DNA of 4,369 nucleotides. Source: a virus. Lineage: Duplodnaviria > Heunggongvirae > Uroviricota > Caudoviricetes. Below the pieces are notes generated by a model. That model searched no databases and was not told where the DNA came from. It worked only from the letters and a program-made list of their open reading frames with translations. The stretch is taken from the IMG/VR virus record IMGVR_UViG_2703719355_000024. One strand, written 5' to 3'. The stretch's first letter is position 1. Every line of letters starts with the position of its first letter. The position numbers and the translations under genes are program-made. This document shows, piece after piece, positions 1 to 4,369 of this stretch.

Positions 1-354
1 TTGTCTGGCGCTTTTCCAACCGCTGGCGCTATCGCAGGGTTCTCTGGAGGAGGTGTTATTGGAGCAATAGTTGGTGGCGCTGCAGGTGGAGCAATTGATG
101 CGATAGCAAAAGGATCGATAGCGAAATTATCCGCAACCAGAAGTGGTCGTTACGCTATTGAAAAGGCTGTTCAAGAGGCAACAAAGGCAGTTAAGGTTGG
201 GGCAAGTGATGGCGCATTAGCGGCGGCAGAACGCAGATTTATGGCAAATAAGGCCGCCGTAAAAGCAATACGCGAGGCACTAGGAAACGAAGAGTTCCAG
301 CGTTTAGCAAGGGCTGGAATTGTGGCATCGCTAAGCGGAATGGCACAGGAGTAA
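1..354 (+). CDS. 3' portion of a CDS that probably starts upstream of the window (5'-partial); hypothetical protein with a Gly/Ala-rich hydrophobic segment followed by an Ala/Lys/Glu-rich helical tail; by position possibly the last virion/ejection-protein gene of a P22-like late operon
   Basis: Open frame from base 1 to TAA at 352-354. Position 1 is TTG with no upstream context, so it is most likely an internal codon. Residues 5-35 (AFPTAGAIAGFSGGGVIGAIVGGAAGGAIDAIA) form a glycine-zipper-like hydrophobic stretch. The ejection-protein assignment is inference from synteny only. Confidence 0.5.
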   Translation: MSGAFPTAGAIAGFSGGGVIGAIVGGAAGGAIDAIAKGSIAKLSATRSGRYAIEKAVQEATKAVKVGASDGALAAAERRFMANKAAVKAIREALGNEEFQRLARAGIVASLSGMAQE

Positions 355-1058: not shown

Positions 1059-1502
1059 ATGCTTACTTGTTTTGATGTCGCCGACTACTTCCTGTCGCGG
1101 TGTGACGAGGATAGCGGTGACACAATCTCTAATTTAAAATTACAAAAGCTTGTTTACTATGCTCAGGGTTTTTCATTGGCGTTGCTTGGCGAGCCTCTTT
1201 TTCAGAATAAGATGGAAGCTTGGATGCATGGCCCTGTTGTCCCTGAGCTTTATCGCCGTTATAAACAATATGGTAATGGCGCTATCCCTTCTCCAGAGTC
1301 TTTTGATGCTGAAAAATTCAGCGAAGAACAGTTAGAGCTATTAGAAGAAGTCTGGGATGTTTTTGGGCAATTTTCTGCCTGGAAACTGAGGAACATGACA
1401 CACGAAGAGTCACCATGGAGATCAAACTATATTGAGGGTGTTGGTGGTTCTGAAATTAGCTCTAAGGAGATGGCAGAGTACTTTGCAACTCGGATTAACT
1501 AA
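1059..1502 (+). CDS. Panacea-domain protein (DUF4065 / SocA-like antitoxin domain, GepA-type phage-associated protein); putative antitoxin or sensor component
   Basis: ATG at 1059 with GGAGG 7 nt upstream; the GTG at 1053 given in the ORF track sits on the SD and is less likely. The segment LKLQKLVYYAQGFSLALLGEPLFQNKMEAWMHGPVVPELYRRYKQYG matches the DUF4065/Panacea core pattern as I recall it. Stop TAA at 1500-1502. Confidence 0.75.
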   Translation: MLTCFDVADYFLSRCDEDSGDTISNLKLQKLVYYAQGFSLALLGEPLFQNKMEAWMHGPVVPELYRRYKQYGNGAIPSPESFDAEKFSEEQLELLEEVWDVFGQFSAWKLRNMTHEESPWRSNYIEGVGGSEISSKEMAEYFATRIN

Positions 1503-1506
1503 CGAG

Positions 1507-1926
1507 ATGGCAAGAAAATCTAAAAGGATTATCCCCCCTGCTGAATCTACAGGTAAGTTAAAGTTAGGGCCGCAGTCAGGGGGGAATTCAGATCAAAAGA
1601 AACCGAAATTTTCATTCTGTTACATCCAAAGCTCTCACTGCATAACGAAATGCCAAAAAGATGAGAAAGCTGGCTTAGCTGATAAATTATACAGATTAAG
1701 TCAACTAACATGGGCAGAGATTAAGCAGCAAGGTAGGCATAAGCTTGGATTTGAGAAGATTGCAAGGGGTGCCATTAAAGCAGGTATCCCCAGTCATATA
1801 ACGGAAGACGTAGATCATTTCTTGGCTTTTAGATTTGATGATTTGAAAGCCATGGTTGGTTATCGTCTTGGATCGACATTTTTTGTTATATGGCTTGATA
1901 GAGAGTTCAACCTATACAAGCACTAA
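1507..1926 (+). CDS. hypothetical 139-aa protein, candidate toxin/effector partner of the Panacea-domain protein
   Basis: ATG at 1507 lies 4 nt after the upstream stop, in the same orientation, with no strong SD of its own, suggesting translational coupling. The ORF-track start at 1432 is a TTG inside the upstream gene. Basic low-complexity N-terminus (MARKSKRIIPPAESTGKLKLGPQSGGNSDQKKPK), a Cys/His cluster (FSFCYIQSSHCITKC), and a beta-rich C-terminus. No family recognised. An intrinsic terminator follows immediately. Confidence 0.7.
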   Translation: MARKSKRIIPPAESTGKLKLGPQSGGNSDQKKPKFSFCYIQSSHCITKCQKDEKAGLADKLYRLSQLTWAEIKQQGRHKLGFEKIARGAIKAGIPSHITEDVDHFLAFRFDDLKAMVGYRLGSTFFVIWLDREFNLYKH

Positions 1927-1953
1927 TAAAACCCACCGTCAGGTGGGTTTTTT
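1927..1953. terminator. bidirectional rho-independent terminator shared by the convergent Panacea operon and the repressor gene
   Basis: AAAA (1927-1930), stem ACCCACC (1931-1937), loop GTCA (1938-1941), stem GGTGGGT (1942-1948), then a T-run from 1949. The flanking A-tract and T-tract allow function in both directions. The repressor stop codon (complement of 1939-1941) lies in the loop. Confidence 0.8.
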
Positions 1954-2748
1954 GTTGTCTCTGCTATCGAGAAGGAAGTTCAATTTTTCCTCTATTTCTT
2001 TAAGCTTGAGATAAAGTAATTCTTTCTCGGTTCTGGCATTTTCAGCTATAAAATCCTCTGCTTCATCCAACGTATTTTCGCTATCTCTTATCGAGTGCAG
2101 CGGGGTTTTTAACAAATCAATTTGTGCATGAATAGCTACAGCAATGATTTCCATATCATCACTGATTTCCAACATCGGGTACGCTGGATTAAGTGGTTTT
2201 AAGTAAAAATGCCCCTGATCTCTTATTAGTTGCTTGAAGGTGGTTTCAAATCCATTGCAACACAGCACGAAGTCTCCTGGTTTGGCCTGAATATCCGGAT
2301 CAAAGCAGACAGTGTAGCCATCCGGGAAGCTAATTCCAGAAGATGATGTCATTGAATGCCCTGTAACCACTAACGCAAATGCATTATTCCCGGCACATAA
2401 CGGGGCAGGGATAAAGTCTATAGGAGTAATGTCGCTTGGAAATTTTCCTCCTTTAGGATAGGAATTTGATAGGTGCGAGAATACGGGGATCTCTCTGACT
2501 GTTACCGTTCTCTGTATTGAGCTAACATCAGGCCCCTCACCAACACCGATAGCTAACCATTCTGTTGTTGTCCCTAAAGTAGCAGCCAGATTTCGTAACA
2601 CAGCGTCCCTTGGCTTGGAATCTCCTGCTTCATAGGCTGCTATTTGCCTTCTTACGATGCCAACCTTATCAGCTAACTGACCTTGAGTCAGCCCCATGGC
2701 AGCGCGAGCGATAGATATACGCTTAGGAAATGAATCGTCAAATTTCAT
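1939..2748 (-). CDS. lambda CI / P22 C2-type repressor: N-terminal HTH (XRE/Cro-C1 type) plus C-terminal S24 (LexA-like) peptidase domain, with an additional ~55-residue charged helical C-terminal extension
   Basis: Start taken as ATG at 2748-2746 with SD AAGGA 6 nt upstream; the ORF-track start at 2805 has no SD and would overlap the candidate divergent promoter. HTH: ISIARAAMGLTQGQLADKVGIVRRQIAAYEAG. S24 domain: GHSM (Ser nucleophile) and TFKQLIRDQGHFYLKPLNPAYPMLE, very close to lambda CI [26 protein letters not shown] and P22 C2 [24 protein letters not shown] as recalled from memory. Confidence 0.85.
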   Translation of the reverse strand: MKFDDSFPKRISIARAAMGLTQGQLADKVGIVRRQIAAYEAGDSKPRDAVLRNLAATLGTTTEWLAIGVGEGPDVSSIQRTVTVREIPVFSHLSNSYPKGGKFPSDITPIDFIPAPLCAGNNAFALVVTGHSMTSSSGISFPDGYTVCFDPDIQAKPGDFVLCCNGFETTFKQLIRDQGHFYLKPLNPAYPMLEISDDMEIIAVAIHAQIDLLKTPLHSIRDSENTLDEAEDFIAENARTEKELLYLKLKEIEEKLNFLLDSRDNKKPT

Positions 2749-2770
2749 ATGTGATCCTTTAAAGTTCACA

Positions 2771-2799
2771 TTGACACATTCAAATTCATGGCAAATAAT
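2771..2799 (+). promoter_or_regulatory. candidate sigma70 promoter for the arc-like/antirepressor operon (Pant analogue)
   Basis: TTGACA at 2771-2776, 17-bp spacer, AATAAT at 2794-2799, about 50 bp upstream of the arc-like start. Flanked by repeated TGTGA/TCACA half-sites that could be operators. Confidence 0.45.
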
Positions 2800-2848
2800 T
2801 GGCATGAGTTTGTGATGATGTGTGATTCAAAAATACATGAGGTGAATA

Positions 2849-3022
2849 ATGGAACAGAAGAAAAAAGATATCAAGCCTATCTCCTACCGCCCAAGTGCTG
2901 AAGTGCGTGAGTTTTTGGAAGGTAACGCAGCTAAAAGCTACCGCTCAATTCAGGGAATGCTTGATTTCTTTATGGCAAGAGTGATGGAGATGGAGAGGAA
3001 AGGTGAAATTGTCATCCATTAA
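2849..3022 (+). CDS. arc: Arc-like ribbon-helix-helix transcriptional repressor (57 aa)
   Basis: Not in the supplied ORF track (below its length cutoff). ATG at 2849 with GAGG at 2839-2842; stop TAA at 3020-3022. Protein [57 protein letters not shown] aligns by eye with P22 Arc as recalled: a basic beta-strand (FNLRWPREV vs ISYRPSAEV), the RS motif, and RVME in helix B. Sits directly upstream of the antirepressor-like gene, as in P22 immI. Confidence 0.7.
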
Positions 3023-3093
3023 AAATGTTGAAGCCCCAACTGCTGCAACAGTCAGGGCTTCGGTATCAACAAAACTTACGAGGTATTATTGAT

Positions 3094-4023
3094 ATGTCAA
3101 GCTTAGCAAAGTCAACTGTAAATTGCACTAACAGCATCACCATTTCAGACGTCAAGATTCATATGGATTCAGAGGGGCGTTACTCGCTTAATGACCTGCA
3201 CAAGGCATCAGGTAAAGAGCGTCGTCATGAGCCTGCTGCGTGGCTGCGACTAGAACAAACCAATGAGTTAGTTCAAGAAATTCTAAATACACAGATGTGT
3301 GTATTTAAAAATGGCGATAACTTTAATTCTTCAGAATCGCAGATTAAGAAGCCAATGGACTCTAAGAAGGGTCGCTACGGAGGCACCTACGTGTGCAAGG
3401 AGCTTGTTTACTCCTACGCCATGTGGATTAGCGCAGCCTTTGCGCTGAAGGTTATCCGTGCATATGACGCAATGGTTACTACCACACAAGAGAGGAAGGC
3501 TATTGGCGGTAAAACTTCAGTAGCTGAACGCACACCGCTACGCGATGCAGTAAACATGCTGGTAGGAAAGAAAGGGCTTCGCTATGACGATGCATACAAT
3601 ATGGTTCATCAGCGTTTTGGTATTGACAGCATTGATGAACTTTCAATTGAACAAATCCCGCTGGCCGTAGAGTACATCCACAGGGTAGTGCTTGAAGGTG
3701 AGTTCATCGGCAAACAAGAGAAGAAAACCAACGAGCTTTCTGCAAAAGAAGCAAACAGCCTTGTATGGTTATGGGATTATGCCAACCGCTCACAGGCATT
3801 ATTCCGCGAATTGTATCCGGCGCTAAAACAAATTCAATCGAACTATTCCTGCAGATGCTACGACTACGGTCATGAGTTCTCGTATGTTATTGGAATGGCG
3901 AGAGACGTTTTAATAAACCACACACGAGATGTTGATATCAATGAGCCAGACGGACCAACGAATCTTTCCGCATGGATGAGACTTAAGAATAAAGAATTAC
4001 CTCCTTCAGTACATAACTACTGA
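3094..4023 (+). CDS. KilA-N domain protein, putative antirepressor (functional analogue of P22 Ant)
   Basis: ATG at 3094 with GAGG at 3080-3083. The in-frame ATG at 3025, 2 nt after the arc-like stop, has no SD but cannot be excluded. N-terminal region has KilA-N hallmarks ([53 protein letters not shown]). Followed by a strong intrinsic terminator. Position between the arc-like gene and the tailspike matches P22 ant. Confidence 0.75.
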
Positions 4024-4041
4024 CAGATAACCAACGCAACG

Positions 4042-4065
4042 ACCCAGCTTCGGCTGGGTTTTTTT
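4042..4065 (+). terminator. rho-independent terminator downstream of the antirepressor-like gene
   Basis: Stem ACCCAGC (4042-4048), loop TTCG (4049-4052), stem GCTGGGT (4053-4059), then a T-run to 4065. Confidence 0.8.
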
Positions 4066-4123
4066 ATGCCCAAAATTCACCGTAGCCATGCTGCGGCGAT
4101 TCCTTGTATCTGGAGCAAATTAA

Positions 4124-4369
4124 ATGACAGACATTACAGCCAATGTTGTGGTAAGCATGCCTTCGCAACTCTTCACTATGGCGCGTTCTTTTAAAGCCGT
4201 AGCCAATGGCAAAATTTATATCGGAAAAATTGACACTGACCCGGTAAATCCTGAAAACCAGATTCAGGTTTATGTAGAGAACGAAGACGGTTCTCACGTT
4301 CCTGTTTCGCAACCAATCATCATTAACGCTGCTCGTTATGGTGAGTTTGATGACTACCCGCTGAAGTGA
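4124..4369 (+). CDS. tailspike protein N-terminal head-binding region (P22 gp9-like); only 81 codons before an in-frame stop at the window edge, so possibly truncated, remnant, or a module junction
   Basis: ATG at 4124 with GGAG at 4112-4115. The first ~70 residues ([70 protein letters not shown]) match the P22 tailspike N-terminus as I recall it. The sequence then diverges ([11 protein letters not shown]) and ends at TGA 4367-4369. Confidence 0.8.

Follow-up and report, generated by a model that had tools for sequence, protein, structure and literature searches.

A predicted ribbon-helix-helix protein in the arc position of an immI-type antirepressor module

Here, we describe a 57-codon gene, which we call RHH57, in a 4,369-nucleotide stretch of tailed-phage DNA (IMG/VR record IMGVR_UViG_2703719355_000024; the whole stretch is hereafter the window). 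We hold three statements about it with high confidence: that it is a real gene, that its product is a ribbon-helix-helix (RHH) protein, and that it takes the place of arc in a module of the immI type that also has sar and ant (Table 1). The window corresponds to the "ant moron" (immI region) of a P22-like phage. As to function, we lean toward the view that RHH57, an RHH protein filling the arc position of an antirepressor control module, acts as its negative-feedback brake. The kind of system is already known, and we infer the mechanism, including dimerization of RHH57, its DNA binding, its target and the direction of regulation, by analogy. A classic circuit architecture is built here from new parts, among them a small protein that at present lacks annotation.

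Table 1. Features of the window, in order of position.
Feature	Position	Strand	Remarks
Gene 16 (DNA-transfer protein), C-terminus	1-354		
Panacea/SocA-type antitoxin-like gene	1059-1502	+	Pfam E = 1.8e-24
Unknown 139-aa gene, phrog_8366	1507-1926	+	4 nt after the Panacea/SocA gene
Lambda-CI/LexA-like repressor, 269 aa	1939-2748	-	HTH_3 + Peptidase_S24, C-terminal extension
Swapped regulatory cassette (repressor + promoter/operators + RHH57)	1954-3020	.	Flanks common to phage Emek
Operator-like half-sites TGTGAT (2750-2755) and CACA-TTGA-CACA (2767-2778, overlaps -35)	2750-2778	.	Inverted repeat I3
Pant-like sigma-70 promoter, TTGACA-17 nt-AATAAT	2771-2799	+	11/12 consensus matches
Operator-like direct repeat TGTG-N4-TGTG(TGAT)	2811-2826	.	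3′ of -10, at the position of P22 Omnt
Shine-Dalgarno (SD) sequence of RHH57, GAGGTGA	2839-2845	+	Read from the sequence
RHH57	2849-3022	+	57-codon ORF, ATG to TAA, stop codon included
sar antisense RNA gene	3026-3092	-	Rfam RF00262, full length
ant, 309 aa, KilA-N + P22_AR_C	3094-4023	+	SD GAGG at 3080-3083
Psar-like extended -10, TGcTAAGCT	3100-3108	-	Within ant codons 3-5; putative
Tailspike head-binding N-terminus	4124-4369		Window end

The first-pass annotation, made from the DNA letters alone, had proposed a gene between the repressor and antirepressor genes. Its coordinates, its substitution pattern and about 55 clusters of homologues all bear this out. Among six divergent loci, dN/dS of RHH57 ranges from 0.04 to 0.30, with dS near or beyond saturation, and third codon positions hold the bulk of the differences. 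A first homologue search yielded 10 clusters and a profile search about 55; all members are 56–57 aa in length, none carries a Pfam domain, and those that have been named are all called "hypothetical". They come from Enterobacterales, namely E. coli, Salmonella, Klebsiella, Citrobacter, Yersinia, Serratia, Erwinia, Lonsdalea, Providencia and Morganella. A tblastn search with RHH57 against 50,697 deposited phage records returned zero matches, so the family is known from prophages and metagenomes only. In the family alignment, strand residues K9, S12, Y13 and R14 are near-invariant, arm residues 4–8, 10 and 15–17 vary, and a C-terminal tail, EKKGE-x-x-I-Q, is strongly conserved. The protein of the window matches phrog_10182 (PHROG 10182, function unknown) end to end (E = 2e-34) and is held in RefSeq as WP_001602016.1, "hypothetical protein"; the description of the gene as unlisted is thus accurate for the annotator's own track of reading frames and not for RefSeq. 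Nor does the frame fill the intergenic gap exactly, as had been stated, since 100 bp of promoter/operator DNA precede it and 71 nt, containing sar, follow. Could 2849–3022 be untranslated, a mere leader of the antirepressor mRNA? The shortness of the ORF would suit this idea, but purifying selection at the protein level is strong, the length of 56–57 codons is fixed across the clusters, the predicted fold is confident and recognizable, and the SD is very strong and conserved. The protein-level constraint and the homologue clusters therefore rule out a mere leader sequence, and the probability that we leave to it is close to negligible.

Sequence comparison places RHH57 exactly in the arc slot and the CI-like repressor in the mnt slot. 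An 11-nt block, TGAGGTGAATA, which includes the SD, is identical before RHH57 and before P22 arc, and the earlier claim of a good SD holds. Among 14 distinct upstream sequences, CATGAGGTGAATAATG is unchanged in most, with differences of a few bases in loci L013/L014 and L021. In an alignment with P22 and ε34, the elements common to the window are the Pant -35 (TTGACA), TGAGGTGAATA, and a hairpin just 3′ of the stop codon; the coding DNA between the SD block and the hairpin is unrelated to that of P22 and ε34. The exchange is also evident on comparison with the Salmonella phage Emek (JQ806763). By blastn, positions 682–1953 of the window are 99.3% identical to Emek and positions 3021–4332 are 86% identical. 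Between these flanks, Emek (L023, 1573–2889) has orf61-orf69-orf77-mnt-arc-orf73; the corresponding part of the window consists of the CI-like repressor gene, promoter region and RHH57. The right edge of the swapped cassette coincides with the RHH57 stop codon (3020–3022), marking a mosaic boundary. Like P22 Arc, then, RHH57 is a small RHH protein (57 aa, and 53 aa for Arc) encoded by the first gene after Pant and behind the same SD block, with sar and then ant directly downstream. To the left of the cassette, the Panacea/SocA-type gene and its phrog_8366 neighbor are 99% identical to the Emek pair, and may constitute a toxin-antitoxin or defense pair within the ant moron. A small minus-strand gene lies between the end of gene 16 and the Panacea/SocA-like gene.

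P22 immI (mnt-arc-sar-ant) has, like the window, a divergent repressor gene, a Pant-like promoter, a small RHH gene, sar, and an antirepressor gene. In both, the antirepressor gene lies downstream in the same operon, sar overlies the ant ribosome-binding site, and the module is situated between gene 16 and the tailspike gene, a location of which L002 and L003 are intact examples. The differences lie in the protein repressors and what surrounds them. The divergent gene of the window encodes a lambda-CI-like protein with HTH_3 and Peptidase_S24 domains rather than Mnt, an RHH protein; the arc slot is filled by another RHH family; and the putative operators are of a TGTG type. The RHH57 module is also found among the tail genes of siphovirus- and myovirus-type prophages. 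The trio of S24 repressor, 57-aa gene and antirepressor is present at 23 of 23 loci (the genome of the window and 22 with homologues), the antirepressor being scored on contigs that extend far enough, and in all 23 the divergent HTH+S24 repressor gene lies about 100 bp from the 57-aa gene. The N-terminal domain of the antirepressor varies among loci (KilA-N, Bro-N or P22_AR_N), and the prophages are of podovirus, siphovirus and myovirus types. The proposal of a three-component immI-like circuit was thus right as to the type of module and wrong as to the count, which is four (CI-like repressor, RHH57, sar and Ant).

The ant moron of P22 is described as highly variable, and some P22-like phages have ant without arc, which implies other means of control (ε34 genome paper, PMC2629481); a paper on phage L gives the same background (PMC8022706). 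A full-text search of a literature library found no description of a module variant that combines a CI-like repressor with a small RHH protein. Both kinds of module can occur side by side. A P22-like prophage of E. coli CU37RT-2 has a tandem pair of antirepressor modules (L002, 3064–8085): one with a CI-like repressor, RHH57 and Ant (plus an ORF6N gene) comes first, and one with the canonical Mnt-like/Arc/sar/Ant arrangement follows after a ClpP-like gene.

Is RHH57 itself an Arc? The first-pass annotation held that it matches P22 Arc at the key positions, a claim that found no support. The P22 Arc query, verified by translating the P22 record, gives no BLASTP alignment with RHH57, and the Pfam Arc family (PF03869) has no match to the window protein at E ≤ 1; among 57 family members, only two touch PF03869, with E values of at least 0.056. 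When the RHH57 family is compared with 28 Arc homologues by hhalign, the P value is 0.011 in an ungapped register and 0.0025 with a 3-residue gap, and the reported probability is 4–12% (about 12% at P = 0.0025). The register pairs RHH57 R14, E18, V19, A27, R32 and S33 with Arc R13, E17, V18, A26, R31 and S32, respectively. In Arc, the base-contacting strand residues are Gln9, Asn11 and Arg13; in the hhalign register, RHH57 has Pro/Gln10, Ser12 and Arg14 at these positions, the Arg alone being common. The tetrapeptide RVME, also cited as a shared motif, does occur in RHH57 and in Arc; its two copies line up only if the 3-residue gap is allowed, and it is variable within the RHH57 family. PGAP does not give RHH57 the name "Arc", though it does so for neighboring Arc genes in L002 and L003. 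Judged by these comparisons, RHH57 cannot be shown to belong to the P22 Arc family.

The fold is another matter. An Arc-like ribbon-helix-helix fold had been proposed for the product, and both the AF2 topology and the profile matches to PDB entries agree with it. In the Arc and RHH HMM search that had been suggested, which missed with Pfam Arc, the best RHH match of the window protein is RHH_5, below threshold (13.7 bits against a cut-off of 26), and sub-threshold RHH_5 matches in the same register are seen in 48 of the 57 family members. Among PDB entries, the family profile matches best to 6iya, an RHH protein of the CopG family, and to 7etr, a longer form of it. Profiles built on 9, 13 and 57 sequences match 6iya with E values of 0.075, 7e-4 and 3e-3, respectively, and the alignment is ungapped over RHH57 residues 6–54 (about 48 residues). 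From the 57-sequence alignment, AF2 predicts a monomer with a pLDDT of 87.3, comprising an extended N-terminal arm, a helix at 17–30 and a helix at 34–50, the latter longer than helix B of Arc; a model from a shallow alignment reached a pLDDT of 69, and its structural matches are meaningless. The nearest outgroup in a library of 1.8 billion proteins is P0017 (51 aa; profile E = 7e-4), which matches RHH_5 at E = 8e-6 and 25.9 bits, just under the Pfam cut-off of 26, and whose gene diverges from a gene of the Arc family (PF03869) just as arc diverges from mnt. Taken as profile and model evidence, these data make the RHH fold of RHH57, and its place in the CopG/MetJ/Arc superfamily, well supported.

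Several of the best structural matches to the RHH57 model are RHH antitoxins (Rv0298, TacA1, CopA_SO, MazE9, HicB), and the best PDB sequence match is itself the antitoxin CopA_SO (6iya). Such matches count in favor of RHH57 as an antitoxin-like partner of the downstream gene in a two-gene toxin-antitoxin or defense pair. We consider this very improbable. The downstream gene is a typical antirepressor gene (KilA-N, Bro-N or P22_AR_N, plus P22_AR_C) whose family varies; RHH57 has no toxin-binding extension; and sar RNA and a divergent repressor are the signature of immI rather than of a toxin-antitoxin locus. RHH57 also departs from CopA_SO and the CopG-like RHH_5 proteins in that its 57-aa members all score below the Pfam gathering threshold, and in that its context is antirepressor control, not toxin-antitoxin.

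Upstream of RHH57, transcription from the Pant-like promoter is expected to start near 2806. The -35 hexamer aligns with that of P22 Pant, and a promoter with 16–18-nt spacing can be read by eye at the same position upstream of the homologous loci. The half-site TGTGAT at 2750–2755 adjoins the repressor start codon, and the TGTG-N4-TGTG arrangement found 3′ of the -10 recurs in L008, L009, L011, L016, L018 and L021. Across loci, a recognition helix of the form xRRQ goes with TGTG-type sites, and xSRQ or xPRQ with ATTGAG- or CTCAT-type sites; in other words, the half-site sequence co-varies with the HTH recognition helix and not with RHH57. The window and L003 have identical RHH57 proteins, different repressors and unrelated promoter/operator regions, with a recombination breakpoint near 2828. 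Because the TGTG-type half-sites co-vary with the HTH helix, and because RHH57 is identical in the window and L003, we assign these sites to the HTH/S24 repressor as its putative operators. The TGTG repeats were also considered as RHH57 sites and ruled out, since they follow the HTH helix and differ between the window and L003. An imperfect palindrome with 12-bp arms at 2780–2812 (AAATTCATGGCA and TGGCATGAGTTT, 10/12 complementary) has the -10 hexamer exactly between its arms. This palindrome is lineage-specific, and absent from L003 despite the same RHH57.

Arc represses both Pant and Pmnt by binding to a 21-bp operator that lies in the -35/-10 interval of Pant. The RHH57 locus differs in having no recognizable Arc-type operator in this interval. 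A k-mer search for an operator motif common to all loci recovered the -35 only, and there is no conserved dyad in the -35/-10 spacer across loci. The occurrence of an identical RHH57 with unrelated promoter regions is difficult to square with an operator of the Arc style between -35 and -10. That no RHH57 operator candidate proved to be conserved, despite the near-invariance of K9, S12, Y13 and R14, is the main evidence against a strictly Arc-like action.

These observations raise the possibility that RHH57, while a real RHH protein of the module, has no action on the divergent promoter and regulates some other target that travels with it. Candidates are the sar/Psar-ant junction, some other promoter of the phage, or the read-through of late transcripts to ant or to the tailspike gene; in a variant of this idea, RHH57 acts by protein contact with Ant or the S24 repressor. 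The DNA 3′ of 2828 (RHH57, sar and the start of ant) co-segregates with the protein, and this, together with the pairing of one RHH57 with two unrelated promoter/operator regions, the failure to find a conserved upstream operator motif and the strong conservation of the C-terminal tail, argues for such a target. It is nonetheless unlikely in our estimate. RHH57 is only 57 aa long, and the RHH core is its sole domain; the inverted repeat at the ant SD varies with compensatory changes, as an RNA structure does and a conserved protein site does not; and the positional analogy with arc favors autoregulation of the operon. In a broader form of the idea, to which we give a similarly low probability, the RHH57 family, spread through the Enterobacterales, would have replaced Arc in a portable antirepressor switch, controlling the sar/ant junction or a protein partner; unlike Arc, it would leave the divergent promoter alone, given that RHH57 and the operators are exchanged separately. 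If this were true, the classic immI circuit would be wired differently, and the CI/LexA-superfamily repressor might add RecA or other proteolytic input. The reading that we prefer, that RHH57 is an Arc-like negative-feedback repressor of its own operon, has in our judgment a somewhat better than even chance of being correct.

The remainder of the circuit is proposed on the model of P22. In a lysogen, the CI-like repressor would occupy the TGTG-type sites over the -35 and the transcription start, and the operon would be off. The Pant-like promoter would drive RHH57 and ant rightward, the repressor gene being transcribed leftward. When this promoter fires, RHH57 would be translated first, from its very strong SD, and would dimerize via its N-terminal strand, in which S12, Y13 and R14 are near-invariant. 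It would then bind DNA and damp further expression of the antirepressor, a brake like Arc, whose loss in P22 arc mutants leads to overproduction of Ant and failure to grow. The sar RNA, made from the opposite strand, would pair with the ant ribosome-binding site and limit translation of Ant.

Downstream of RHH57, sar is readily recognized, with an Rfam score of 62.3 bits against a gathering score of 43 (E = 1.3e-11), and the window is about 93% identical to P22 over 3024–3064. The RNA folds into two hairpins (z-score -6.26). Stem-loop I bears the anti-Shine-Dalgarno for ant in its loop, and stem-loop II (3030–3061) is a U-tailed minus-strand terminator. The Psar-like -10 lies at the position of the ε34/P22 Psar -10, TATACT; a consensus scan did not call the window site, and a TG-preceded TAnnnT hexamer is found at the Psar position in most loci. 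At eight other loci, where the copies are more divergent, the Rfam sar model gave no match beside RHH57 at the gathering score, and it is the common fold that speaks for sar there. A two-hairpin minus-strand RNA is predicted between the small gene and ant in every locus, P22 and ε34 included, and stem I exhibits compensatory changes (UAUCAA/UUGAUA, UAUCGA/UCGAUA, CAGUU/AACUG). This comparison was made with per-sequence folds anchored on the stems; MAFFT plus RNAalifold recovered 7 pairs only, because indels in the sar regions misalign the stems.

The start of ant also needs to be placed. The first-pass annotation had pointed to an ATG at 3025 as a candidate antirepressor start, and had suggested translational coupling to the preceding gene. 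This ATG does exist and is in frame with ant, but the start given by PGAP is 3094, and position 1 of the phrog_2812 profile falls on the methionine encoded at 3094, residue 24 of the 3025 frame. The ATG at 3025 has no SD, lies at the 3′ edge of sar, and is replaced by ACG or missing in P22 and most of the homologous loci. On this comparative evidence, we place the start of Ant at 3094, not 3025. The case for coupling falls with it, because from 3094 the sar gene and the SD of ant itself separate RHH57 from ant. Given that the same two-hairpin RNA precedes ant in every locus, control of Ant appears to be exerted through sar rather than through translational coupling. Automatic annotation places ant starts about 20 nt inside the 57-aa ORF at several loci (L002, 4176; L009, 1137; L018 and L021, both 3155; and others). 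These calls are probably wrong, a conserved SD and ATG about 70 nt downstream, past sar, being likelier. Pfam domains mark the product as an antirepressor (KilA-N, E = 1.6e-22; P22_AR_C, E = 7.5e-30).

The repressor in the mnt slot matches HTH_3 (E = 1.6e-11) and Peptidase_S24 (E = 1.3e-17) in Pfam and phrog_4, "transcriptional repressor", is called "LexA family protein" by PGAP, and is 32% identical to lambda CI (E = 3e-27). It retains the catalytic Ser (GHSM) and Lys (FKQL), and the canonical Ala-Gly site at which lambda CI is cleaved is missing, the window protein having KGGKF and its relatives VQAR, VQAS or VQAA. SOS input to the repressor is thus uncertain, because the canonical self-cleavage site is not conserved. 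Its C-terminal extension is about 55 aa long and ends in KKPT in several loci. For the leftward promoter of the repressor gene, a consensus scan gave a sole candidate, TTGATA-17-CATTAT, which is not convincing; it lies on the minus strand at 2874–2846, within the first codons of RHH57. Antirepressors under LexA or SOS control are known from the Gifsy prophages, coliphage 186 (Tum) and N15 (AntC). These systems likewise place an antirepressor under a repressor of the LexA/CI superfamily. The present locus differs from them in that the phage itself encodes the repressor, from a gene that diverges from the operon, and in that an RHH gene and sar are interposed.

The immI circuit of P22 (Mnt, Arc, sar, Ant) is a textbook example of genetic control, and Arc is a model for protein folding and DNA recognition. 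The locus described here shows immI to be modular: the promoter frame, the SD, sar and the antirepressor slot have been kept, and both protein repressors have been replaced, one by a protein of unrelated fold (CI-like HTH+S24) and the other by a very distant RHH family. It also supplies a hypothesis of function for about 55 protein clusters in prophages of E. coli, Salmonella, Klebsiella, Yersinia, Serratia, Providencia and others, and it corrects the ant start codons that overlap the small gene in several assemblies. In addition, it draws attention to orphan antirepressor modules, which could act on other resident prophages. The window is itself such a remnant. Both its gene 16 fragment and its tailspike gene are truncated, the latter diverging after "IINAA" and then stopping, and the remnant is wedged between the tail-fiber and NleG genes of a lambdoid prophage on one side and dacD on the other. 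The repressor, RHH57 and ant genes are intact within it, and positions 1930–3110 are 100% identical in three E. coli genomes from chicken.
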